Source: a virus
Lineage: Duplodnaviria; Heunggongvirae; Uroviricota; Caudoviricetes
Strand: one strand, 5' to 3'
Virus record (IMG/VR): IMGVR_UViG_2778261641_000016
Length of the DNA stretch: 11,080 bases
The notes below the pieces were generated by a model that was not told where the DNA came from, made no database searches, and saw only the letters and a program-made list of their open reading frames with translations. Of the stretch, positions 460 to 11,080 are shown piece after piece (position 1 is the first letter of the stretch; each line of letters begins with the position of its first letter). The position numbers and the translations under genes are program-made.

Positions 460-505
460 ATTCGTAATGCGAAGGTCGTAGGTTCGACTCCTATTATCGG
501 CACCA
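460..505 (+). pseudogene. 3' half of a tRNA-Thr gene (thrW-type, anticodon loop through CCA); attachment-site remnant
   Basis: ATTCGTAATGCGAAGGTCGTAGGTTCGACTCCTATTATCGGCACCA contains an anticodon loop TTCGTAA (CGT), T-arm GTAGG-TTCGACT-CCTAT, acceptor 3' strand TATCGGC, discriminator A and CCA. The matching 5' acceptor strand GCCGATA is absent upstream, so this is a fragment and not a functional tRNA. Identity to E. coli thrW is from memory. Confidence 0.65.
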
Positions 506-1085
506 TCAACAGAAAATCCCGTAAAAACAGCATTCTTTAGCATGTTTATCTAACGGTTTGTAACTTCTGTTCTAACGTCTGTTAGCACTGGTAAACGCCT
601 TTGCGTTGTATCGGCTCAAGTATTGTACAACGTACTGGCGGGTAGTTACCAGGCTCAAGCCCGAACAGCATTAGAAATTATGCCATCCCTTGAAGCTAAA
701 AGAGTTGCCGGACTCTCTAAACACATCACTTGAACCCTTAGCGATACGTTCCGCGCTTCGTGCGGCGCTCAATGATGCTACACGTCGAGATGACGTTGCA
801 GAAAATAAACAGGCGTAATGTTGGGAAGACTAACCGGATCGGGAAAGAATCCGGCTCTGCCACGGTTTCGATCACCGGAGTATAACGATCACCTGATAAG
901 AGAACGTGCTAAGGCTTTATCCTCCCTGCGAAGGGATTACACCCTGCGGAAGCGCTACGCGCCGCCTTTTCTTATGTGCCCAACACGGCACGTAATGGTC
1001 ATCCATTATCTGCACCATTGTAACTTTCGTTGTACTGCCTCTCTGATGTACGTTGAGCGCTGGCAGATTCAGCGGAGGGGATATC

Positions 1086-1244
1086 ATGTCAAAAGCTAAC
1101 CAAAAAGCAGCCACGAAGCGCAACAACCGTAAGATTCACGCCCGTAAATTCCTGGCAACACCAGAGGGGAAAGCCTGGCTTGCTAAGAAGCAGGAAGAGC
1201 GAGAGGAAATCAAGTTGGCGCGAGCTGCAAACTTGATGTTTTGA
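1086..1244 (+). CDS. small, strongly basic hypothetical protein (52 aa)
   Basis: ATG at 1086 lies 6 nt after SD GGAGGG (1074-1079), in frame with track ORF 1053..1244. Product MSKANQKAATKRNNRKIHARKF... is Lys/Arg-rich. Stop TGA 1242-1244. Confidence 0.45.
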   Translation: MSKANQKAATKRNNRKIHARKFLATPEGKAWLAKKQEEREEIKLARAANLMF

Positions 1245-1247
1245 GAT

Positions 1248-1263
1248 GGGGCTAATCAGCCCC
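1248..1263. terminator. GC hairpin between convergent genes (possible terminator)
   Basis: GGGGCT-AATC-AGCCCC perfect 6-bp stem immediately after the stop of the 1086..1244 gene. It overlaps the stop codon of the convergent minus-strand gene and has no adjacent U-tract, so function is uncertain. Confidence 0.3.
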
Positions 1264-2029
1264 TATTGCCCCTATGCTTTTTTTCGAATCTTGTCACAAC
1301 TCTATCCAACCATTTGGGTTCTTCTCTAAGATCTGAGTAGTAACAATTTTCTGGAACCGCGTTCCAGAAAGCAGTTATTGCGTTAGCAAAATCTACAAAT
1401 TGATCTTCTGAGACATGTAAATCGTCATGGTTAGGGACAATCTGCGTGCCTCTAACATCGGTGGGGTTTGGGTAATACTCAGGATGATCAACTGATAGTG
1501 TTTGATGTGCAGGGCCGTCTCCATGCTTGTATACGTTTACCACCAAGTTACAGGCTTTTATCCTTTCTCCGTATTCGGTTCCATTGATTGTGAGGCCAAT
1601 CCATTCGAGCAAATCAATTAGCTGATGGAAAGTTAAATTCCAGATCATGGGGGTAATCAATTCTCTTTCACACCAATTACTTAGCTCTTTGATAGTATGT
1701 TCTCTTAGTTTTTTATCAAACTGATGATACATACCTGCTGTCAACGCCAACAATACGGTATTTTGCATCTCCAGAAGCGACCGTACATAATAAATTCCCT
1801 CATGATAGGCTTGCTCGTAGGCCGCCATTGGGTCATCGTTATCTTGATCAAAATACTCAGCAGTAGTCTCCAAAAACTGTTGTTCTCTCTTCTCTGCTTC
1901 TTGTTCTAAATCACCAAACTGAGAGAGAAGCCGCCGCCTTGCCTCAGAAACGTAAAATTCATGGGGTTCAAGAAAGTATGGAAGATCGGCTCTGGCTAAC
2001 CAGAAGGTGACAAAATTTTCAGTAGACAT
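1256..2029 (-). CDS. hypothetical protein (257 aa), function unknown
   Basis: Long minus-strand ORF. Preferred start is the ATG at 2029 (MSTENFVTFW...), preceded by SD GAGGAA with 4-6 nt spacing; the track start at 2056 has no SD. No motif I can assign. Confidence 0.6.
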   Translation of the reverse strand: MSTENFVTFWLARADLPYFLEPHEFYVSEARRRLLSQFGDLEQEAEKREQQFLETTAEYFDQDNDDPMAAYEQAYHEGIYYVRSLLEMQNTVLLALTAGMYHQFDKKLREHTIKELSNWCERELITPMIWNLTFHQLIDLLEWIGLTINGTEYGERIKACNLVVNVYKHGDGPAHQTLSVDHPEYYPNPTDVRGTQIVPNHDDLHVSEDQFVDFANAITAFWNAVPENCYYSDLREEPKWLDRVVTRFEKKHRGNRG

Positions 2030-2192
2030 ACATTTCCTCAATGAAGCGATAGACATTTTGAGGTTATGTTATCTTCGGTGAGGGTTAAAATCCTCAACTG
2101 ATTCAATGGAATTGTCATTTGGTTTGAAATGCGGTAAAAGAATAAAATTCGTAATGTACGCTTTGCAGAAACAATCTGAAAATGAGGTGGTT

Positions 2193-2420
2193 ATGAGTGA
2201 ACGTTACGAATTTTTACCCAATTGCTTCCTGAAAGTCTCTATCTCATCGGGTTACTTTACTGCCATCCTTGATGGTTCGCTTCCTCCTGATACCCCTGGT
2301 TCTGTTCATGCTGATAATGCCACGCAAGTCATAATCGTACTCGATTCCTACTTCCAATTGACTGACTTACAGCATCAAGGAATTGCTAATTATCTTTGCT
2401 CTCAAGGGATGGAACTTTGA
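2193..2420 (+). CDS. hypothetical protein (75 aa)
   Basis: ATG at 2193 preceded by SD GAGGTGG (2184-2190), in frame with track ORF 2106..2420. Divergent from the 257-aa gene. Confidence 0.4.
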   Translation: MSERYEFLPNCFLKVSISSGYFTAILDGSLPPDTPGSVHADNATQVIIVLDSYFQLTDLQHQGIANYLCSQGMEL

Positions 2421-2875
2421 TAGATTGGTTGCTTAATGTTGATAATCTGACCATGCTTGCCGCATGGGCTGGGTTTGCACTATCCATTTTCCAGCTATTA
2501 AAATCCAGAACAGATCTACGCCTTTTCTTAGGTTGCGATCAGTATGAAGACAGAATTTATGTTTCCAACAAAAGCGCCCATGATGTGACGATAAGTTCGG
2601 CGGGCATAGTAACCGCCAGCGGACGCCTTAGCGATTGTTCTAACGAACATTGTGATGAATACATGATCAGCCCCATGTTGCCACGCCGATTAAAAGCCCG
2701 TGATGAAATGATCTTAGAAGTACCATTCATCAATAAGGCTCACCATAATAAGGTGCATCATCGCGGAGGGGTGTATGTTACTACATCTGATGGGAAGCTG
2801 TTCAGTGATGTTAGTTGGCTGCGTCGTCGCTGGTGGTGGATATTGTCTCTGATCCTACGTGATTCCAAGCAGTGA
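2417..2875 (+). CDS. hypothetical protein with N-terminal hydrophobic (probable transmembrane) segment
   Basis: ORF in track (2396..2875) overlaps the stop of the upstream gene. Possible starts are TTG 2417 (after AGGGA at 2405-2409) or ATG 2453; the start is uncertain. Segment LAAWAGFALSIFQLL is hydrophobic. Confidence 0.4.
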   Translation: MIDWLLNVDNLTMLAAWAGFALSIFQLLKSRTDLRLFLGCDQYEDRIYVSNKSAHDVTISSAGIVTASGRLSDCSNEHCDEYMISPMLPRRLKARDEMILEVPFINKAHHNKVHHRGGVYVTTSDGKLFSDVSWLRRRWWWILSLILRDSKQ

Positions 2876-2933
2876 TTACTTATACACCGCACCAGACCAC
2901 GCTGGTTATCTGCTTGTCTTCCTTCTTCAATTG

Positions 2934-3131
2934 TTACTCCTCTTCAAAGGTCATTGTGTAGCGGCATTGCTGCGACGGCCTGAGCGTCACTGTCTCCGTA
3001 AAGTTGGCGTTGGAATAAACGCAAATCTTCGCGTTGTCTGTCTCCTGTTCGTCACTGAGAATCAGGGTTATCTGTCCGGCATTCGCCAGGACTGGCATTA
3101 CTGTCAGCGTCAGCACAAGCAAGCGTTTCAT
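2934..3131 (-). CDS. small secreted protein with Sec-type signal peptide (65 aa)
   Basis: ATG at 3131 preceded by perfect SD AAGGAG with 6-nt spacing. N-terminus MKRLLVLTLTVMPVLANA has an n-h-c signal-peptide layout. The SD overlaps the stop of the upstream recombinase gene, suggesting co-transcription. Confidence 0.55.
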   Translation of the reverse strand: MKRLLVLTLTVMPVLANAGQITLILSDEQETDNAKICVYSNANFTETVTLRPSQQCRYTMTFEEE

Positions 3132-3141
3132 GCGTATCTCC

Positions 3142-3702
3142 TTATAAGTCCATCTCATTGATCACACGGCTAACGGCTTGCTTGTCTAAATCCAGATAGC
3201 GCCTGGTGTCAGTGATGTTGCTGTGATTAAGCACGGTCATAGCTAAAGCGATGTTGTTTGCTGAACGCTTGTAGATGGCATTCCCGCCAGCTTTGCGGAA
3301 GCTGTGAGCTGATACAGTGCCATGAATACCGATAGCTTTAGCGGCCTCTGCGATCTGCTTGCTCACTTCTTCGCGTCGTACAGGCGCTTGCTTGTTCATT
3401 GATCGGTTACGCTGGCTTCTGAACACATGCACATCATGCGGATACTCAGCACGGCGACGAGCAATCATCTGCACCACTGGAGCAGGGAGAGTGAGGGCTT
3501 TACGCTTCCCTGTCTTCTGTTCTTCTATGTCAATCTCACCGTTGATCACTTCGTCGAAGCGTAACGCTACGGCATCCCCCACACGCAGTACAGCGGCTTG
3601 CATCATTAACGTAACGTCAGCTATCAGGCTCTTGTTATGAGCGTTTAGCCACTCCCTGATCGCTTTGGCTTGCTGTTCGTCTAACACTACTGCTCTGTTC
3701 AA
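3142..3702 (-). CDS. small tyrosine recombinase (catalytic domain only; FimB/FimE-size integrase/invertase, or truncated integrase)
   Basis: Product carries the catalytic signature in order: Arg in VLRVGDAVALRFDEV, HxxR in HSFRK, and HSNITDTRRY near the C-terminus. Probable start TTG at 3702 after SD GGGAGGG; the track start at 3774 is also TTG but has no SD. There is no N-terminal arm/core-binding domain. Confidence 0.65.
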   Translation of the reverse strand: MNRAVVLDEQQAKAIREWLNAHNKSLIADVTLMMQAAVLRVGDAVALRFDEVINGEIDIEEQKTGKRKALTLPAPVVQMIARRRAEYPHDVHVFRSQRNRSMNKQAPVRREEVSKQIAEAAKAIGIHGTVSAHSFRKAGGNAIYKRSANNIALAMTVLNHSNITDTRRYLDLDKQAVSRVINEMDL

Positions 3703-3799
3703 TTTACCCTCCCATAAAGACACACATCTAAACTCAACGAAACAAACAATATGATCAATTTCAGTAAGTTGCAATATAAATGATCAAAAATCGAACTGT

Positions 3800-4009
3800 C
3801 TTGTGTGTGGTAAATGGCGCGATTGCGTCCAGTGCTTAACGACCTCCAGGGCCGCCTCCAGATCGAAAATTTCTTCTCCTCTAAATATCTTGAACAAAAT
3901 CATGATGTTGGCATTTATAAACATGTGTTTGAACATTGCCAAATCCTCAACTCTGCACGAAGAACAGCGGCAACAGCGGAACATCACACTACCAATGCTT
4001 GTGTGTGGT
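3800..4009. repeat. pair of 12-bp direct repeats CTTGTGTGTGGT (3800-3811 and 3998-4009)
   Basis: Exact 12-mer present twice, 198 bp apart, directly upstream of the recombinase gene. Confidence 0.4.
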
Positions 4010-4080
4010 TATTGTCTATCTCATTGATTTAAATCTGATAAATGTAAGGTTGTTAGGCGAGGGCGGGGCTAACCTGCCTG

Positions 4081-4109
4081 TATGCACAAATTATGCGGAG
4101 TTTATGCAC
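4081..4109 (+). repeat. three TATGC(A/G) direct repeats phased at 11 bp (iteron-like)
   Basis: TATGCAC at 4081, TATGCGG at 4092, TATGCAC at 4103, with exact helical-turn spacing, directly after a GC box GGCGAGGGCGGGG (4056-4068). Confidence 0.4.
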
Positions 4110-4460
4110 TTGAAACTGAGTGTGTAATGAAATGATTAGAATGCTAATCAATTGGTGGATTTTGGCATGAAAAAGAAACATCGTTTCATTTTAGAAAACT
4201 CGTTCAGCACATTGCACCTGTCATGAAACTCCTCATTGTGGACAATGATCGCTGTGAGCCGCATGGCGCAAGGCTTTACGCAAAGTGAGTGATGGTTACT
4301 ATCTTGCTGACTATGGCAACTTTACCCATGTAACAACGGCAATCTTTACCTGTCATTTAAGATAGGCTTAGCTATGATTATCGTGTTGTTTTGATAGGAA
4401 TAACCTCTCGTTACTCTTAGTGTTGTTGCATGGATGAATCAGAGTTAGTTGGGGGCGTTA

Positions 4461-4541
4461 TACATCAAAATGATGTATAGATGCATGGGATACGCATCAA
4501 ATTGATGTATGGATCGGCAAACTACACATCAAATTGATGTT
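4461..4541. promoter_or_regulatory. array of three inverted-repeat sites CATCA-N3-TGATG phased at 32 bp (operator-like)
   Basis: tACATCAAAATGATGTa (centre 4469), cGCATCAAATTGATGTa (centre 4501), cACATCAAATTGATGTt (centre 4533). Half-site copies recur at the downstream promoters. Confidence 0.5.
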
Positions 4542-5091
4542 CTATACAAAGAGATTCTAAAAGCGATCTCTAAAAGAGAGCTTTTAGAAGATCTTGTTAA
4601 AGATTCGCTTTGCTGGCGCGTATCGCCTGGCAAGTGACCTGATTCGCCTTTGGGGGCTACTCGGTCAGCCGCTCACGACGCAGCGTAGCGCATCTGTCTG
4701 TGATTGTGCCAGGGCTTCGCCCTCGTGAAACGAGGCACAGAAGCTATGCGCCGTGTGCGCAATGTCTTTCAGCATAACTTCTGCCTGTCTTCCATGCTCC
4801 GCATTCATCCATGCAAAGTTAGCCCACGGCTAAGGATTCACTGGTCGCTGATGGCTCCAGTTCATCCAGCCTCAATCCAATACCATCACCTACTATCCTG
4901 ATAACTAACGTTATCCCTCAGTAGTTGTGCTATTGGTTTCGGGAGTAAGTGCCAGAGGGCGGCGGTAACGCAAACGGAACGCCCCAGACGCGCTGAGAGC
5001 GAATTTGAGAGGATAGGGAGGGGATTGCAACTCTCAGGCTTTCAAACCTGTTAGAAAGCGATAGACCGCGTTTTATGATGACATGAATGAA

Positions 5092-5120
5092 TTGATCACA
5101 ACGTGGAAATGCGCTATAAT
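5092..5120 (+). promoter_or_regulatory. sigma70-like promoter (TTGATC - 17 bp - TATAAT)
   Basis: -35 TTGATC at 5092-5097, 17-nt spacer, perfect -10 TATAAT at 5115-5120; points into the downstream operon. Confidence 0.5.
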
Positions 5121-5142
5121 TTGAAAGGGATTTAAATAAGTG

Positions 5143-5171
5143 TTGACATTTAAATCATTTCATGTTAAAGT
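5143..5171 (+). promoter_or_regulatory. second tandem sigma70-like promoter (TTGACA - 17 bp - TAAAGT with TG extension)
   Basis: Perfect -35 TTGACA at 5143-5148, 17-nt spacer, -10 TAAAGT at 5166-5171 preceded by TGt. The half-site AAATGATGTA (5172-5181) sits at the predicted transcription start. Confidence 0.45.
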
Positions 5172-5266
5172 AAATGATGTAGGGTAATGAAAGCATTCAT
5201 CCCGTCCTCATCTCAGGCATCCAGCCTAACGCAAACAATCCAACTTACACCGCACTATCAGGCAAC

Positions 5267-5515
5267 GTGATTAACGTTCTCCCTGGATGGTGTTTCTGTG
5301 TTTCTAACGCAAGGAGAACCAAAATTAAGTATTTTAATCCAGAACTTGTCTTCGAGGCTTTAAAGGCCGGAAGCCAGACGCGAAATGCAATAAACAGCCA
5401 GCGAGCAGCCGCACAACGGCAAGGATATTTCGAACACGCTGAAAGATTGCGTAAAGGAATCGAACTTTACGATCAATGGAAAGCTGAACAGGCTGAAACC
5501 ACCACCAACGAATAA
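5267..5515 (+). CDS. hypothetical protein; start codon uncertain
   Basis: Open frame in track from GTG 5267 to TAA 5513-5515. A strong SD AAGGAGAA (5311-5318) lies inside it but no in-frame ATG/GTG/TTG follows within 15 nt; only ATT at 5325. Confidence 0.35.
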   Translation: MINVLPGWCFCVSNARRTKIKYFNPELVFEALKAGSQTRNAINSQRAAAQRQGYFEHAERLRKGIELYDQWKAEQAETTTNE

Positions 5516-5533
5516 ACCAGAAGGAGAAACCAA

Positions 5534-5710
5534 ATGAGCGAAATCCAGAAGAAGAAACCAGCCGGAACATTCGTAAAACTGCCGGATGAAGTGTTTAGTA
5601 CTTTGTTCAAAGAGGCGCGAGCGAGAGGCGTAACAGTGCAGGAGATGTTAATTGACGCTGCAACCACACTTTCCACATCAATTAAGAACGGAGAACGTTC
5701 TACCAAATAA
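5534..5710 (+). CDS. small DNA-binding protein, ribbon-helix-helix-like (58 aa)
   Basis: ATG 5534 is 7 nt after perfect SD AAGGAG (5521-5526). Product MSEIQKKKPAGTFVKLPDEVFSTLFKEARARGVTVQEMLIDAA... has the beta-strand/helix/helix pattern of Arc/CopG-type proteins. Not in the ORF track because it is under 60 aa. Confidence 0.55.
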   Translation: MSEIQKKKPAGTFVKLPDEVFSTLFKEARARGVTVQEMLIDAATTLSTSIKNGERSTK

Positions 5711-5724
5711 GGATACACCCTAAC

Positions 5725-6465
5725 ATGACTGACATTATAAACAGTAAGGCTTTTAGTTTCACCAACACCGAAGACGCATTTAACGAATGCACCAGGATCA
5801 CCAATCTTAAAACAGGCGTAACAGAGTCCCTGTCTCCTGCTGATAAGCAGTTTTACGTCAGAATGCGCCATCGTTATTATCGCTTTGCGATAGAGTTGGG
5901 CGGTACTTATTACGATGACATTGATCAACTTGGTGCAAGTATTGGTGTCAGCTCGGCTACGGCAACACGTATTGTTGCAAAGTTGAAGAAAATCGGACTG
6001 ATCGCCAGTAATAAGCCAAAGCGCTCTAACCAATGGACTATAACGCCACTCACGCCGCAAAACTTCACCTTTGAACGTGATCGTAATGCGATGGAACGTG
6101 ATTCCGCGCCGGAATGGGTAGATTGTCTGAAACATCCCGTGTTTGGCAAAGCTAAAGAAGACGTAGCGCCAGAGGAAGAAAAACAGCAGTCAGTGCCAGA
6201 AGAGGCCAAAGCAGATCCGAAGCCGGAGAAGCCAAAGAAAATGCCTACGAAGAAACCCGCCTCCATTCCAGCTAAAGATATTAAGATAGAGCCAGTTAAT
6301 TTAAACTTTCTTGAGGGTTATCGGGATGAATGGGAGAATCCTGAAAAGAATCTACCAGTTTCACAACATCCGAAAATCAGATGGCTACTTATTAACGGAT
6401 ACCTGGACACAGAGAAGAATCCAAAACTTAAACCAATCTACGAGGAAATAGAACATTTATGCTGA
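5725..6465 (+). CDS. winged-helix DNA-binding protein with long Pro/Lys/Glu-rich linker (possible phage O-type replication initiator or regulator)
   Basis: 246-aa ORF. The N-terminal part has an HTH-like segment (DIDQLGASIGVSSATATRIVAKLKKIGLIAS), followed by a low-complexity linker (EEEKQQSVPEEAKADPKPEKPKKMPTKKPASIP). The domain layout resembles replisome-organiser proteins; assignment is from pattern only. Confidence 0.6.
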   Translation: MTDIINSKAFSFTNTEDAFNECTRITNLKTGVTESLSPADKQFYVRMRHRYYRFAIELGGTYYDDIDQLGASIGVSSATATRIVAKLKKIGLIASNKPKRSNQWTITPLTPQNFTFERDRNAMERDSAPEWVDCLKHPVFGKAKEDVAPEEEKQQSVPEEAKADPKPEKPKKMPTKKPASIPAKDIKIEPVNLNFLEGYRDEWENPEKNLPVSQHPKIRWLLINGYLDTEKNPKLKPIYEEIEHLC

Positions 6466-6920
6466 AAACGGTTATACCCAAACAATACAACGAACGTGAT
6501 CTTAACATCATCCATCTTGCCAGTTTATTAAATCCAGAAGTTGAAAGAGGTGTTGCATTCGAACAAGCGCAAGAACTTGTAGATGTTTACGCTGAGCGAG
6601 GTGAATCAAGTTACGCTAATGCTCTTGTTACGCTATTCAATGCAGCGATGAAGCCACCGAAAGAGATAGAATGTAAAATGACATCCCCACATCTTCACGA
6701 TAAGAATCTGTCTCCTTCGGAACGTCTGGTATTAATGCACCTCGAATCACTGCCATCATTAACAAATGTGAAACAGGAGTCAATAGCGATAGTGTTGGGG
6801 ATAAGTGTGGCAACTGTATCCAGTGCGATTCGCAAGCTTCGCCGCAATGATTATCTAACTACTACGTTAATCAAACCTGGTCGCGGTAAAGGATGCGACA
6901 TTACACTTACGACTAAATAA
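6459..6920 (+). CDS. hypothetical protein with C-terminal winged-helix DNA-binding motif (153 aa)
   Basis: Start overlaps the upstream stop (ATGCTGA), implying translational coupling. C-terminal region SPSERLVLMHLESL...ESIAIVLGISVATVSSAIRKLRRNDYL is HTH-like. Confidence 0.55.
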   Translation: MLKTVIPKQYNERDLNIIHLASLLNPEVERGVAFEQAQELVDVYAERGESSYANALVTLFNAAMKPPKEIECKMTSPHLHDKNLSPSERLVLMHLESLPSLTNVKQESIAIVLGISVATVSSAIRKLRRNDYLTTTLIKPGRGKGCDITLTTK

Positions 6921-7024
6921 CAACAATCGGGAAACTTTTATGATTACTGCTTTATGGTGGTTCACCATATTCTATGGCGTTTACGTTATAACCAGACAAG
7001 GAGTTTCCCCTCTACGAGGAATGA

Positions 7025-7408
7025 ATGGGACGAAAAGAACGAAGTAACCTTGTTAGAATCGAAAAAGCCACACGCATCAGCAAACGTAAATACACCTCTT
7101 CTCTACAAGACCTCGCACGAGAGTCTATTCCTGGTGAGATGGTGACAACTATTAAAGAATATCCCGCAGTAGTACCAAATGGATTAGAGTTTGAACTATT
7201 GCAGGATGTTCTATCGTCAACGGATAACGTTTATTACAAACCACGACGCAGACGCGAATATATTATAGATAGTAGCCATCTCAAGAAATGGCAAATAGCA
7301 GGATTTGAACATTACGCCGATTATATTGGGTATTGTCAAACCTGGGGGCTATCCCAGCACACACAAGAGTTTGATATTCTCTTTGACGACAAGGAAAACA
7401 ATGAATAA
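7025..7408 (+). CDS. hypothetical protein (127 aa), basic N-terminus
   Basis: ATG 7025 is 5 nt after GAGG (7016-7019). Its stop overlaps the next start (ATGAATAA). Confidence 0.5.
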   Translation: MGRKERSNLVRIEKATRISKRKYTSSLQDLARESIPGEMVTTIKEYPAVVPNGLEFELLQDVLSSTDNVYYKPRRRREYIIDSSHLKKWQIAGFEHYADYIGYCQTWGLSQHTQEFDILFDDKENNE

Positions 7409-7739
7409 TAAAACTATGGACACAGTGAACACCCTAATTAACTCTTTCCACGACAACTGGCATTTACCAACCTTACAGCTTGTTAATGCAGCGTGGCGTG
7501 AGAGAACGCCCTCCGCGCTTCTGGAAGCGGTGCAATACACTGAACAGGCAATCACTGCCCTTGAACATCTGCAAACGTCTGTAGCTCGTTTGGTGCAGCG
7601 TGACGGCAGTTCGATCACACCAGAAGAAGCGTGGCGTGTAGCTAATGACCTTGAGGAGCTTGCTTGCTCTCTGCAATACATCACCGTTGAACTCGGAGAG
7701 CTTTCCATCCAGATCGCGGAAGAATGCGCCATAACATAA
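7401..7739 (+). CDS. hypothetical protein (112 aa)
   Basis: ATG 7401 is 5 nt after AAGGA (7391-7395), in frame with track ORF 7305..7739. The longer track start has no SD. Stop TAA 7737-7739. Confidence 0.55.
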   Translation: MNNKTMDTVNTLINSFHDNWHLPTLQLVNAAWRERTPSALLEAVQYTEQAITALEHLQTSVARLVQRDGSSITPEEAWRVANDLEELACSLQYITVELGELSIQIAEECAIT

Positions 7740-7754
7740 AAGTTACTAAATGTC

Positions 7755-7783
7755 TTGACATTATGTGCTATATGTGTCATAAT
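7755..7783 (+). promoter_or_regulatory. near-consensus sigma70 promoter (TTGACA - 17 bp - TGtCATAAT)
   Basis: Perfect -35 TTGACA at 7755-7760, 17-nt spacer, extended -10 TGtCATAAT (7775-7783). It starts 16 bp after the stop of the upstream operon. Confidence 0.6.
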
Positions 7784-7789
7784 GAGTTA

Positions 7790-8334
7790 TAGGGTAAGTA
7801 TTCGAATCACTTCACCCTCGTATGTCAATACGCACTCCTTGAGAATGCCGTTCCCATAGCGGCATTCTCTCCCTCTGAATGCTATTTCTGAAAGTGTTGG
7901 TTCTTTGTCTTGTTTGTTCCGAAGGAATGCGCGGGATGTAATATCTCGTTGTGTTGGTATTGCATCGCAATCACCGCGCATCTCCGACTTTTTCAGAAAG
8001 GGCATTCGCTCTTTGCTCATTCATTCCGTTAGGATGAATGTAGTCAGACTGAATAAACGCCGTCAGCGGTAGTTACGTTCAGGCTGGCAATCTCTTATTA
8101 CTATTCCAGTGGTGATATTGAGATTCCATTCCCACTTCTCGCCATGACAGAAGGGCTTCTGTTTTGAAGTGGGAGCAATGACGGGCGATCCTACTTCTGT
8201 TATTCGTAACAGTTGCGCCCTTCATTTTTTCAAGAAGCCATTCTTTAACATCATAATCCTCCGAAACGAAAATGATTTTAACAGAATGCTTTCTAACAAG
8301 GGCATATTCTCCAGGGGCTTAATCGCCCCTTTTT
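7790..8334 (+). ncRNA. candidate ~545-nt non-coding leader transcript (promoter to intrinsic terminator); speculative
   Basis: No plus-strand ORF of 60 aa or more between the promoter and the terminator. Contains a perfect 10-bp stem hairpin (7841-7850 / 7860-7869). Only short ORFs without credible SD. Confidence 0.3.
8313..8334 (+). terminator. rho-independent terminator
   Basis: GGGGC-TTAATC-GCCCC stem-loop (8314-8329) followed directly by TTTTT (8330-8334). Confidence 0.6.
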
Positions 8335-8405
8335 AACAATCTGCATGTAACACTTCCGTTATCAATGGAAGGATAAACGCAGTTATAACGCGAAGGAACA
8401 ACACA

Positions 8406-8621
8406 ATGTTCTTAATAAACAATCGCGACCGAATCCTAAAATACAAATCCGAAGTGATTCAAGTTAATCCTGAGTTAATAGCTAAAGTGGCTGAAATGGC
8501 AGGATGTACCGTTGAAGAAATAGAAAAAGCTGTAGACCAGTATTTCCCTTCTGAGGACACACCTCAACTTAGTATGCAGGAACGGATCGCAATCAAATCC
8601 AAGGAAATCAAACAACAATGA
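8406..8621 (+). CDS. small hypothetical protein (71 aa), first gene of the head operon
   Basis: ATG 8406 is 7 nt after SD GAAGGAA. Its stop overlaps the start of the next gene (ATGA), implying translational coupling. Confidence 0.55.
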   Translation: MFLINNRDRILKYKSEVIQVNPELIAKVAEMAGCTVEEIEKAVDQYFPSEDTPQLSMQERIAIKSKEIKQQ

Positions 8622-8977
8622 TTGTAGACCTAACCGAACTTTTCCCAATTCGTAAGAGTTTCACTGACGTATTGAGCTACGCCACTGATTCTTTTGCAGT
8701 CGTAGAAGGCCGTGTTTTCGACCTGCCAGCAGATATTGAATGCGGCGATGTTATCGGCGCTGATGGCGCTCTATACACCTCCGGCGATGATGCCTTTGTG
8801 GTGGTAAGTGATTTCGTGAGTGCTGGCGACGGTAAAACCGTGAATGTCCTACGTGCGCCTAATGTTGGTAGCTTCGTAGCACTGAAAGCCGACAACCTGC
8901 ACGCAGCTAATCACGCCGCAGCTATCACCACGCTCGAATCCAAAGGGTTCGTATGCCGTCCATTCTTCACCTCTTAA
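8618..8977 (+). CDS. probable phage head decoration protein (119 aa)
   Basis: Gly/Ala/Asp/Val-rich small protein encoded immediately upstream of the major capsid gene, the same position as gpD before gpE in lambda-like heads. Assignment rests on position and composition, not on recognised sequence identity. Confidence 0.5.
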   Translation: MIVDLTELFPIRKSFTDVLSYATDSFAVVEGRVFDLPADIECGDVIGADGALYTSGDDAFVVVSDFVSAGDGKTVNVLRAPNVGSFVALKADNLHAANHAAAITTLESKGFVCRPFFTS

Positions 8978-8993
8978 TCAAGGAAGATAAATA

Positions 8994-10025
8994 ATGAGTA
9001 AAATCGCAATTGGGCGTGAGATGGTCGATTTAGCGCCAATCTTCCAGGCTCTGCCGGAACGTAACTATCTTATGAATGCCCTCGACCTATTCGACGGGGT
9101 AGGTGTTCAGAATCCGAAAGTGGTGGTGACACAGCTTCTGGATGATAACTACAGCCTGTTTAACACCCCGCAGAGCCGTTATTCATCAAACCACGACACT
9201 ACCGCGCGTCAGAATGGCAAAGAATACCTTATCGAGATTCCTTGGTTTGCAAGGGAAGATGAGTTTAAACCTGTAGACGTACAAGGCCGCAGAGTGCAGG
9301 GAACGGACTACGAGCAAACCGTTACCGACCTGTACACCGAATACACTGGCAAACATAAGATTGCTTATCTGCGTACCCGTGAGTCTTACCTGGCCCGTGC
9401 TCTGTTCAAAGGTGAAGTTTATACGCCTGCAACTGATGACCTACTGATCTCTTATGCTGAACTGTTCGGTGTGGTGCCAATGACAGCCAGCGTGAGCACA
9501 GCGACAGCGGCACAGGATTTTGATGCGATCTTAGACAAAGTTCAGGCTGCCGCAGGTGGATTGGCTGGACAGATTGAACGAGTGATCGTATTCGCTAAAC
9601 CTGCTGCATTTAGCCAGATTCGCTTCTCTGACAGTATGTCTAAGGCGTTCCAGTATGTAGCGCCATATGACGACCGTAACCTATTCTACCAGCGTCACGA
9701 GCTTCTCCCTGGTGTTAGTACGTTTAGCCTACCTGGTGCGCCTATCGACATTGTTAAAGTGACAGATCCGCTGATCCTTGCACAGATGCCAGATGATGCT
9801 GACATGGTGGCGGTTCCGGTGTTCAGTAAAGGCACAAATGCTTATCAGAACATCTACGGCGCTGCCTCTGGTAACTTTGCGCTGATCGATGCTGCACCTG
9901 CTGAATACTACTCTTGGGGCTACCTGAGCGAGCGCGGCGATGCTTACCACGTTATGCACGAAAACAGCGCATTACCAGTGAACCATGCGTTAGGTATGCA
10001 GGTGAAGATCACCATCACTGCTTAA
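8994..10025 (+). CDS. phage major capsid protein, lambda gpE-like (343 aa)
   Basis: ATG 8994 after AAGGAAG. Length matches the 341-aa lambda E protein, and local blocks (ALFKGEVY, VIVFAKP...F) resemble E-family blocks as I recall them. It follows the decoration-like gene. Confidence 0.75.
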   Translation: MSKIAIGREMVDLAPIFQALPERNYLMNALDLFDGVGVQNPKVVVTQLLDDNYSLFNTPQSRYSSNHDTTARQNGKEYLIEIPWFAREDEFKPVDVQGRRVQGTDYEQTVTDLYTEYTGKHKIAYLRTRESYLARALFKGEVYTPATDDLLISYAELFGVVPMTASVSTATAAQDFDAILDKVQAAAGGLAGQIERVIVFAKPAAFSQIRFSDSMSKAFQYVAPYDDRNLFYQRHELLPGVSTFSLPGAPIDIVKVTDPLILAQMPDDADMVAVPVFSKGTNAYQNIYGAASGNFALIDAAPAEYYSWGYLSERGDAYHVMHENSALPVNHALGMQVKITITA

Positions 10026-10088
10026 TGAGCAAGCGGGAGCCTGACCCGCTGGAAATAATCAGGCTATTGAATAGGGCGTGTGAACGTT

Positions 10089-10121
10089 GGGAACATCTCC
10101 CCAGTGTTCCCGCCCTTTTTT
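10089..10121 (+). terminator. probable intrinsic terminator after the capsid gene
   Basis: GGGAACA-(9 nt loop)-TGTTCCC stem (10089-10111), then GCCC and TTTTTT (10116-10121). Confidence 0.45.
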
Positions 10122-10144
10122 ATTTCCAGAATGAGGAAAGATAA

Positions 10145-10342
10145 ATGCAAGTGATTGTAAAAAGCGCGGGGCTTCACCTCGCCGTAAATGCTGAAACAGC
10201 AGAAGAGTTATTAAATCTGGCGGGAGTGTGTCGTGTGCTTGAAATAGATCACGGTCATCTACGTCAGTTATTACATCGTGGGCGTAGTGTATCAGATGCA
10301 CTTAATTATCTGGTGAGTAAAAAAGGCGGTGGCGATGCTTGA
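10145..10342 (+). CDS. hypothetical protein (65 aa)
   Basis: ATG 10145 after strong SD GAGGAAAG. Its stop overlaps the start region of the next ORF. Confidence 0.5.
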   Translation: MQVIVKSAGLHLAVNAETAEELLNLAGVCRVLEIDHGHLRQLLHRGRSVSDALNYLVSKKGGGDA

Positions 10343-10799
10343 GATTAATACAAGTAAGATCGTCAACACCGTAACTTTCACCGTTGACAAAGGGAGTATT
10401 GCAGAGGCTAAGGCCGCAGCGGATAACCTTCAAAAGCACTTCCAGAAAATAGCCGATCCCAAGATTCGCTTCCAGGATCTGAAGCAGCGCAGACAGAAAG
10501 CCCGTCAACAAGCCGATGATGCACGTTTTAATGATAAGCCTCGTGATACGAAGGAAATGAAAGCCCAACGTGCGGCGGAGAAGCAGAAAGCCAGGGATGA
10601 AAAGGCCAATCTGAAAGCGAAGCAGCAGCTACAGAAGCGCCAAGAGACAGCCGAGCTTAAACTTCGCCATGCAGGGCTACAAGTGTCAGGAATTAAAGGT
10701 AAATACGGGCTTGATCCTAAATCTCAGTATGAAGCGTTACGTTATATTCATCAGCAAAGCGAAGAGTTTGCGAAAAGGGTATTAACTTTCGCAGCCTGA
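10329..10799 (+). CDS. hypothetical protein, highly charged Lys/Arg/Glu/Gln-rich central region (156 aa)
   Basis: Track ORF overlapping the upstream stop (start ATG 10329 or 10335). Its last ~8 codons are read out of frame from invertase-homologous DNA. Confidence 0.5.
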   Translation: MAMLEINTSKIVNTVTFTVDKGSIAEAKAAADNLQKHFQKIADPKIRFQDLKQRRQKARQQADDARFNDKPRDTKEMKAQRAAEKQKARDEKANLKAKQQLQKRQETAELKLRHAGLQVSGIKGKYGLDPKSQYEALRYIHQQSEEFAKRVLTFAA

Positions 10800-11080
10800 C
10801 CGACAGCATAGATACGTCTTCACCAATGGGACGCTTTTTCTTCCATGTCATGGGCGCACTTGCAGAAATGGAAAGGGAGCTGATAGTCGAACGTACCAGG
10901 GCGGGATTGGCTGCGGCTCGTGAAGAAGGGCGAATAGGTGGGCGTCGATCAAAGCTAACTGATGAACAGTGGGCGCAGGCAGGCAGGTTGATTGCAGCAG
11001 GTGAATCACGACAGCGTGTGGCATTAATTTACGATGTTGGGATATCGACGCTATATAAAAAATTTCCGGCAACCAGGTAA
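10772..11080 (+). pseudogene. serine DNA invertase (Pin/Gin/Hin family) C-terminal fragment, lacking the catalytic N-terminus; runs off the window end
   Basis: Translation EKGINFRSLTDSIDTSSPMGRFFFHVMGALAEMERELIVERTRAGLAAAREEGRIGGRRSKLTDEQWAQAGRLIAAGESRQRVALIYDVGISTLYKKFPATR closely matches the C-terminal half of e14 Pin as I remember it. The frame is closed by TGA at 10730-10732 and no serine-nucleophile N-terminal domain exists in any frame upstream. Confidence 0.65.

Follow-up and report, generated by a model that had tools for sequence, protein, structure and literature searches.

What is the function of a GC-rich box and the three short, evenly spaced repeats that follow it in the non-coding DNA of a small integrative element, and which protein reads them? 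This question is raised by an 11,080-nucleotide record of the Caudoviricetes in IMG/VR (IMGVR_UViG_2778261641_000016; the whole of this stretch is referred to here as the window). A first-pass annotation of the window, made from the sequence alone, had likened the box to the cohesive-end (cos) sequence of phages P2 and P4, and had proposed that box and repeats form a packaging or replication site of a helper-dependent element. The site lies within a 1.5-kb non-coding stretch (3775-5266) of a genomic island found in enterobacteria, with the gene of a small tyrosine recombinase on one side and a probable iteron-type origin of replication on the other (Table 1). Results presented here show that the repeats form a conserved array and that the likeness of the box to cos arises by chance, and tentatively point to the host initiator DnaA as the protein that would bind the array.

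The TATGC(A/G) array and its conservation

The three TATGC(A/G) repeats and their exact 11-bp spacing were confirmed as first reported, and the arrangement is beyond chance: the window contains a single instance of TATGCR-N5-TATGCR-N5-TATGCR, whereas 200 dinucleotide-preserving shuffles yielded none. Conservation was assessed by aligning about 30 loci, representing 20 distinct sequences. The 11-bp phasing is exact in two diverged lineages of the element (types 1 and 2), as represented by about 20 distinct relatives, and both TATGC and the register are invariant in the 11 distinct array variants of these two types, each 11-bp unit having seven conserved and four variable positions. The spacers and nearly all flanking sequences have diverged between relatives, in places past alignment. 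Read as 9-mers, the array comprises three boxes (R1, R2, and R3) in one orientation, separated by 2 bp, in a register kept in all relatives. Positions 2-8 of R1 are invariant across the 11 family variants, with variation confined to positions 1 and 9, while TATGC, G8, and the GT that comes next are conserved in R2.

Conserved RNA structure was not found at the site (RNAalifold with 16 homologues gave -6.5 kcal/mol across 298 alignment columns, the covariation term being about 0), a scan of Rfam yielded no family match there, and a sigma-70 promoter scan detected nothing at the site, where inspection likewise revealed no conserved promoter. As there is no conserved RNA structure, Rfam family, or open reading frame (ORF), the constraint acts on the double-stranded DNA itself. 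The conservation pattern is that of putative protein-binding sites on one helix face, and we regard 4080-4110 as a genuine, conserved, and helically phased array of three such predicted sites. It is a new instance of a known and ordinary kind of cis-element.

DnaA as a candidate reader of the array

Among the possible explanations of the array, we ranked DnaA first, the recombinase or another element-encoded protein second, a transcription factor third, and packaging and coding last. R1 and R3 each differ from the DnaA box TTATNCACA at one position and R2 at two, and boxes with two mismatches are typical of low-affinity DnaA sites (PMC6727663). Low-affinity arrays in oriC also have a 2-bp separation and are filled cooperatively from stronger sites (PMC6727663). 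DnaA makes base contacts at positions 2, 3, 4, 7, 8, and 9 of its box (PMC6727663), and all six of these match in R1 of the window. The R3 core has a single variant, a G-to-T change, which affects the degenerate (N) position of the DnaA box.

When IMG/VR was scanned for the triple pattern, 43 distinct arrays were recovered outside this element family. A canonical TTAT[ACT]CACA box was located within 46 nt of 14 of them (10 in 11-bp register), where about 0.1 would be expected by chance according to a rough back-of-envelope estimate. These unrelated viral contigs contain TTATGCACA and canonical DnaA boxes in alternation and in register (e.g., ...TGTGGATAAC TTTATGCACAAC TTATGCACAGC TTATGCACAAC CTGTGGATAAC...). 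Since canonical boxes accompany the outside arrays in register, TTATGCACA phased at 11 bp can be counted among the attested forms of DnaA-box clusters. Such triples can also arise for other reasons. For example, at the start or promoter of prtR, a pyocin/prophage regulator gene of Pseudomonas, we found TATGCAC-gaca-TATGCGC-aatt-TATGCAA together with two more TATGC units (L240:8060-8150, and about 10 similar IMG/VR contigs); this TATGCAC-N4-TATGCGC-N4-TATGCAA family was considered as a relative of the array and rejected, given its unrelated context.

Evolution of the neighboring sequence is consistent with a reader encoded by the host. A pair of direct repeats upstream of the array (D1; CTTGTGTGTGGT at 3800 and 3998) has changed in concert, both copies co-varying in type 2 (for example, to TTTGTGTGATGTT twice in the type 2 locus L091). 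A slowly evolving host protein fits as the reader of the array because the D1 repeats co-vary between lineages and the array does not. Moreover, iterons, an AT-rich inverted repeat, and a GC-rich stretch are located 350-900 bp to the right of the array, as in the origins of iteron plasmids. The earlier suggestion of a replication or initiator site is therefore retained in a reduced form: the 11-bp array is of the initiator-bound kind, R1 and R3 each agree with the DnaA box in 8 of their 9 bases, and the array shares its non-coding region with an iteron origin, so that it could plausibly serve a helper-dependent element as a site of the replication type. From these matches we infer, as a tentative first choice, that the array may consist of phased DnaA-type sites, with the host initiator DnaA as its candidate binder. 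In that case, DnaA would bind the strong boxes R1 and R3 and cooperatively fill the weak R2 on one helix face, as in oriC, and the resulting short DnaA oligomer could open or organise the nearby origin. Alternatively, the oligomer could play an architectural or regulatory part in the recombinase cassette, both of these being functions that we infer.

Several observations weigh against DnaA. Position 9, one of the contact positions, may be A, G, or T in R1 and is a T in R3, and the supposedly free position 5 is a G in nearly all boxes (with one G5-to-T change, in R3). As position 9 varies and G5 is kept, a dedicated reader of TATGCA would be the better explanation of this pattern. DnaA-box-like 9-mers are not enriched across the window (11 observed versus 11.9 expected), and the likeness to DnaA sites was a post hoc observation. 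In addition, a third type of the element has the same Rep, iteron, and hairpin origin without the array, which co-segregates with the recombinase lineage; hence, the array is not obligatory for that origin. The repeat sets of other recombinase cassettes (loci L277 and L279) are different, which hints at cassette-specific readers such as the recombinase.

The GC box, the recombinase cassette, and rival readings

The GC box at 4056-4068 is present exactly as first reported, and the P2/P4 cohesive end given for comparison (GGCGAGGCGGGGAAAGCAC) is correct, as the P2 and P4 records both begin with it. The resemblance between the two extends to 12 of 13 bases with one inserted G, but its level is no better than chance: alignment against P2/P4 cos gave no significant match, and the best local alignment (score 19, with a gap) was equaled or exceeded in 16 of 100 shuffled windows. 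The 19-nt cohesive end had no match in the window at ≤3 mismatches, the best window alignment of 140-bp P2 or P4 cos-context queries fell away from the GC box, and the flanks shared by P2 and P4 (AAAACCGCCCCG..AAGCGGGCG, also read TTAAAACCGCCCCG..AAGCGGGCG, on the left; GCGCGC on the right) are absent at the box. The block holding the box is an imperfect inverted repeat (GTTAG(G)CG-N7-CGCTAAC) that is near-invariant in type 1, with GGCGAGGGCGGCGCTAAC as its usual reading and GGCGAGGGCGGCG in most type 1 relatives. The cos-like GGGG is a minority variant, most relatives having GGCG. In type 2 (L088 and L091), the box is replaced by AGGAGAGGTGAGGGGAGG and the same capsid module is kept, and type 3 has the same capsid module without a GC box. 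A blastn search with 4035-4125 against 50,697 phage records (E-values up to 10) returned no relevant match, exact matches to the site in IMG/VR were only three copies of the element itself, and no sequence at the site was common to any phage or plasmid searched. Contig ends were also considered as DNA termini and rejected as assembly breaks, including the end of contig L217 exactly at GGCGAGG, which is an assembly break of a 110-kb bacterial metagenome contig. A lambda-type 12-nt cosN (GGGCGGCGACCT) was likewise rejected, with four matches at three mismatches in the window versus 4.7 expected, and none at the site.

We accordingly reject the packaging claim of the first-pass annotation, given the chance-level similarity, the absent flanks, a box that is not kept in relatives, and the lack of any phage match. 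Phased repeats are typical of terminase small-subunit sites, GGCGAGGGCGGGG equals the first 12 nt of P2/P4 cos apart from its inserted G, and the element has a capsid gene and no terminase, which means that some helper-recognised packaging signal is required in it. Nonetheless, it is very improbable that this signal is the GC box, as a P2/P4-like cos core, or the repeats, as terminase small-subunit sites: the 3' part of the cohesive end is missing along with both flanks, none of the 50,697 phage genomes shares the sequence, no P4 genes occur in the element, and the sole contig end at the box is the assembly break in L217. The GC box (4056-4078) is instead a lineage-specific flank of the array and not a cohesive-end site, and its likeness to P2/P4 cos arises by chance. 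This removes a tempting mis-annotation as a P4-like cos site, and the cos reading is replaced by a testable one, namely, a conserved and phased DnaA-box-like array with a minimal tyrosine recombinase on one side and an iteron origin on the other.

The array is inherited with the recombinase gene. Approximately 450 bp upstream of this gene, the array included, always accompany it, and gene and upstream block together form a cassette that spans 3142 to about 4155. In type 2 (Leclercia and others), the recombinase is 63-66% identical to that of type 1, and the repeats keep TATGC and the 11-bp register. In type 3 (L277, integrated at leuX), the small recombinase is only 24% identical, and the GC box, the TATGCA array, and the palindrome at 4130-4153 are missing, with similarity to the window resuming at about 4160. 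Because type 3 keeps the origin and swaps the cassette, the array belongs to a cassette that is inherited as a unit, beside but separable from the origin. The core of the 4130-4153 palindrome (AATGATTAG-AATG-CTAA) is kept in types 1 and 2 and can be read as 8+8+8, with arms (AATGATT) unlike the TATGCAC repeats; it is a candidate operator or core-type recombination site. Other cassettes have repeats of their own: L277 carries ATAAAGTG three times with a matching palindrome (ATACACTTT-N3-AAAGTGTAT), and L279 (3020-3110; Escherichia coli ZJ3920, cassette at tRNA-Gly) has about six copies of TGATTAAA at roughly 11-bp spacing near a small recombinase gene. Phased repeat arrays with cassette-specific motifs thus seem to be a general feature of these cassettes. 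The TGATCA boxes just upstream of the recombinase start are probably part of its promoter or operator. A second copy of the array or palindrome was not found in the element, and all of the ~20 distinct homologous sequences are collinear, with no inverted or deleted alleles among the roughly 30 loci, which makes an invertible switch unlikely; this candidate, or a second site, was rejected, and a single resolution-type site in the array region is possible. Also rejected was a dif/Xer-like site (GGTGCGCATAA-N6-8-TTATGTTAAAT), the best score at the site being 13/22 versus 14-17 in shuffled windows.

Of the alternatives to DnaA, binding of the repeats by the small tyrosine recombinase or another element-encoded protein is possible if rather doubtful. 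The direct repeats would then be accessory sites and the 4130-4153 palindrome the core crossover of a res-like site, which would resolve or rearrange the replicating element. The confinement of array, palindrome, and GC box to a block that always goes with the recombinase gene, the replacement of this whole block where the recombinase lineage differs on an otherwise similar element, and the separate repeat sets of L277 (with palindrome) and L279 are all consistent with this idea, as are the intact catalytic residues, and the conserved G5 and free position 9 fit a TATGCA reader better than they fit DnaA. However, the co-segregation may be mere physical linkage, and the repeat motif TATGCAC is unlike the palindrome arms, contrary to known core-plus-accessory sites, for which the Tn4430 internal resolution site (IRS), with its core and direct repeats, loxP upstream of cre, and rfsF/ResD served as our comparison. 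The array is also unchanged despite the divergence of the type 1 and type 2 recombinases, although the D1 repeats co-vary, and neither a second site, rearranged alleles, nor likeness to dif was found, as described above. A bolder version of this idea, which we consider unlikely, is that GC box, triple repeat, and palindrome are together the target of a previously undescribed site-specific recombination cassette, in which a recombinase consisting of the catalytic domain only would act on phased repeats, possibly with host DnaA, within an undescribed family of capsid-gene-only satellites of enterobacteria. If true, such a cassette might couple the replication status of the host to maintenance or switching of the element.

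It is similarly improbable that the repeats are operator or activator sites at a nearby promoter for a winged-helix or response-regulator-type transcription factor, host- or helper-encoded, in the manner of Pho boxes or phage late-activator sites. Seven conserved and four variable positions at 11-bp phasing would suit such a protein, a conserved TAGAAT hexamer (4137-4142) lies about 30 bp downstream, and the region separates divergently transcribed genes; regulation by a helper factor is also plausible because the capsid operon is seemingly under separate leader-terminator control. Against this, neither inspection nor the promoter scan revealed a convincing conserved, properly spaced -35/-10 pair by the array, no plus-strand gene starts within 1.1 kb, and no conserved terminator-bounded RNA or RNA structure was found. 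Least credible of all is a protein-coding explanation, either as a 63-aa ORF with a TTG start (3936-4127) or as a short peptide from an ATG in R1 (MHKLCGVYA...). Three type 1 sequences leave the 63-aa frame uninterrupted, some of the changes in it being synonymous, but stop codons break this frame in type 2. All types allow an ATG-initiated MHx[LIV]C..YA peptide, preceded in type 2 by a purine-rich, Shine-Dalgarno-like run, but its length ranges from 9 to 17 aa, it lacks a ribosome-binding site in type 1, and its third codon is free (K, R, G, L, or V). The three repeats, moreover, are in three different codon phases.

Table 1. Positions of the array, the GC box, the recombinase cassette, and the replication region in the window
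Feature	Position	Strand	Sequence or remarks
Small tyrosine recombinase, 186 aa	3142-3702	-	Catalytic domain only; R, K, HxxR, H, Y conserved
Two TGATCA (GATC) boxes	3752-3786	.	Just upstream of recombinase start; kept in types 1, 2, and 3
Direct repeat D1a	3800-3816	+	CTTGTGTGTGGTAAATG
Direct repeat D1b	3998-4014	+	CTTGTGTGTGGTTATTG
GC box block	4052-4078	+	GTTAGGCGAGGGCGGGGCTAACCTGCC; type 1-specific; usually ...GGGCGGCGCTAAC...
GC box core	4056-4068		GGCGAGGGCGGGG; read directly from the window
Box R1	4080-4088	+	GTATGCACA; TTATGCAC[G/T] in other relatives; DnaA box TTATNCACA match 8/9
TATGCA repeat	4081-4086	+	11 bp to the next start
Box R2	4091-4099	+	TTATGCGGA; elsewhere GTATGCAGA or ATATGCAGG; weak middle box, DnaA consensus 7/9
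TATGCG repeat	4092-4097	+	11 bp to the next start
Box R3	4102-4110	+	TTATGCACT; variants TTATTCACT, TTATGCATA; DnaA box match 8/9
TATGCA repeat	4103-4108	+	
Palindrome	4130-4153	.	AAATGATTAG-AATG-CTAATCAATT; kept with the array in types 1 and 2; absent in type 3
Segment kept in all element types	4160-4290	.	Variable hairpins near 4175-4205; AAAACTCGTTCAGCA; GAGCC..GGCTTT
Palindrome	4235-4246		ATTGTGGACAAT; holds DnaA-like TTGTCCACA on the minus strand
Three 32-bp iterons	4446-4541	+	Palindrome ACATCAAAnTGATGT inside each
AT-rich imperfect inverted repeat	4541-4603	.	29-nt arms; GATC sites; directly after the iterons; conserved
Replication module	5725-6920	+	DUF6945/winged-helix initiator-like protein (5725-6465); HTH_36 protein (6459-6920)

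The host element and comparison with known systems

The sequence from 460 to 10774 in the window is 100% identical to an island beside the tRNA-Thr gene thrW in nine complete E. coli genomes. This integrative island is about 12-13 kb long (in locus L001, it continues to locus position ~19200) and comprises, in order, variable cargo, the recombinase gene (minus strand), the 1.5-kb non-coding stretch, small ORFs, the genes of the DUF6945 and helix-turn-helix (HTH) proteins and of two conserved small proteins, and then a 660-bp non-coding leader followed by genes of 71, 119, and 343 aa, the last encoding a major capsid protein of the lambda-E family. In complete copies of the island, these are followed by a gene for a 614-aa coiled "TolA/tape-measure-like" protein and a full-length integrase gene. 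In a comparison with 50,697 phage genomes, the capsid protein showed at best 27% identity and hence no close relative, and no terminase, portal, or P4-type genes were found in the element. Relatives were identified in E. coli, Citrobacter, Pseudenterobacter, Buttiauxella, Enterobacter, Leclercia, and metagenomes, inserted at tRNA-Thr (thrW), tRNA-Gly (glyU-type), or tRNA-Leu (leuX) genes; E. coli AR_0128 (NZ_CP021722) is one of the carrier strains. The helper-dependent setting suggested by the first-pass annotation is supported, as an integrative island with capsid, Rep, and integrase genes and neither terminase nor portal looks like a helper-dependent satellite. Literature searches turned up no description of the element in the papers covered, and the integrative mobilizable elements (PIMEs) of Pseudomonadota, which have tra genes, were rejected as a different kind of element.

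Within the replication region, 4446-4603 is the probable origin core, and the GC-rich stretch (4600-5000) follows its AT-rich inverted repeat. Relatives with a diverged Rep have another iteron palindrome, and in L006 four copies of ATACGGGAAAAACCCGTAT stand in place of the iterons, an exchange that we read from the sequence as a predicted swap of binding specificity. In L007 and L091, a DEAD-box helicase gene takes the place of the DUF6945 and HTH genes, and the DNA is alike up to about 4290 and wholly different beyond; the DNA beyond 4290 is a Rep-specific origin. Between the two arms of a perfect 14-bp inverted repeat (TTGCATGGATGAAT at 4426-4439 and ATTCATCCATGCAA at 4803-4816) lie 363 bp with the iterons, hairpin, and GC-rich stretch, and no inverted alleles were found for this repeat among the relatives examined.

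A second long conserved non-coding stretch (7740-8405) lies directly upstream of the capsid operon. It includes a strong TTGACAT-N17-CATAAT promoter near 7755-7785, a conserved hairpin (AATGCCG..CGGCATT) near 7845-7868, and a terminator-like GGGGC..GCCCC stem followed by TTTTT at 8314-8334, with compensatory changes in type 2. The stretch looks like a leader of ~560 nt with a terminator at its end. Such an arrangement suggests that the late genes are controlled by an antitermination-type mechanism, in which a helper factor may take part.

Both ends of the window depart from the island. Position 1 to about 230 is the 3' end of a prophage tail-fibre assembly gene, and the left end is not the usual proA-thrW context; 236-506 matches the attP region of the thrW-integrating lambdoid phages mEp213 and HK75, and only the 3' part of the tRNA-Thr is present there (no tRNA is predicted by ARAGORN). 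Such a left end is consistent with a lambdoid prophage that integrated in tandem just upstream of the island. On the right, the island breaks off at 10774 inside the gene of the 614-aa protein, and the 3' half of a serine invertase gene of the Pin/Gin type (10775-11080) is joined to it. In e14-like prophages, a Pin/Gin-type gene is located about 1 kb from the same tail-fibre assembly gene as that at the left end. The fusion is either a rearrangement that removed the right end of the island, including the integrase gene, or an assembly chimera.

The identity of the protein that reads the array would show how the element is tied to host or helper functions, and where one should look for its true packaging signal. 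Compared with the cos sites of P2, P4, and 186, the locus shares GGCGAGG(G)CGGGG with the first 12 nt of the 19-nt cohesive end and a small, integrative, and probably helper-dependent host element; it differs in its one inserted base, the last 7 nt being unmatched, and the box not being conserved in relatives. The element also has no sid, psu, delta, or alpha genes, and its capsid gene belongs to the lambda-E family rather than the P2-N family. Tn4430 TnpI/IRS, P1 cre-loxP, F ResD-rfsF, and cer/psi similarly have a conserved non-coding block upstream of a tyrosine recombinase gene, with a palindrome and direct repeats co-inherited with the gene as a cassette. In the element studied here, in contrast, the motifs of repeats and palindrome arms differ from one another and the site is not dif-like, while the recombinase has no N-terminal core-binding domain and no recombination products were seen among the loci aligned.

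The low-affinity arrays of oriC and the DnaA clusters of plasmids and phages are alike in having 9-mers one to two mismatches from TTATNCACA, in one orientation and with 2-bp gaps, and the strong-weak-strong layout and the shared intergenic region with iterons and AT-rich DNA also recall oriC-type arrays. The array described here differs from these in having only three boxes, in being 350 bp from the iterons, in conserving position 5 and not position 9, and in being dispensable in a sister lineage with the same origin type. The element family is more unusual than the array. Similar to known satellites, such as P4-like elements, phage-inducible chromosomal islands (PICI), and capsid-forming PICI (cf-PICI), it is 12-13 kb long, with an integrase, a tRNA attachment (att) site, an iteron replication module, and variable cargo, and it carries a capsid gene and lacks a terminase. 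Unlike them, it has only a lambda-E-type major capsid gene with small neighbors and the gene of the 614-aa protein, has no portal, protease, terS, alpA, sid, or psu, and encodes a capsid protein without a close relative among the phages searched.

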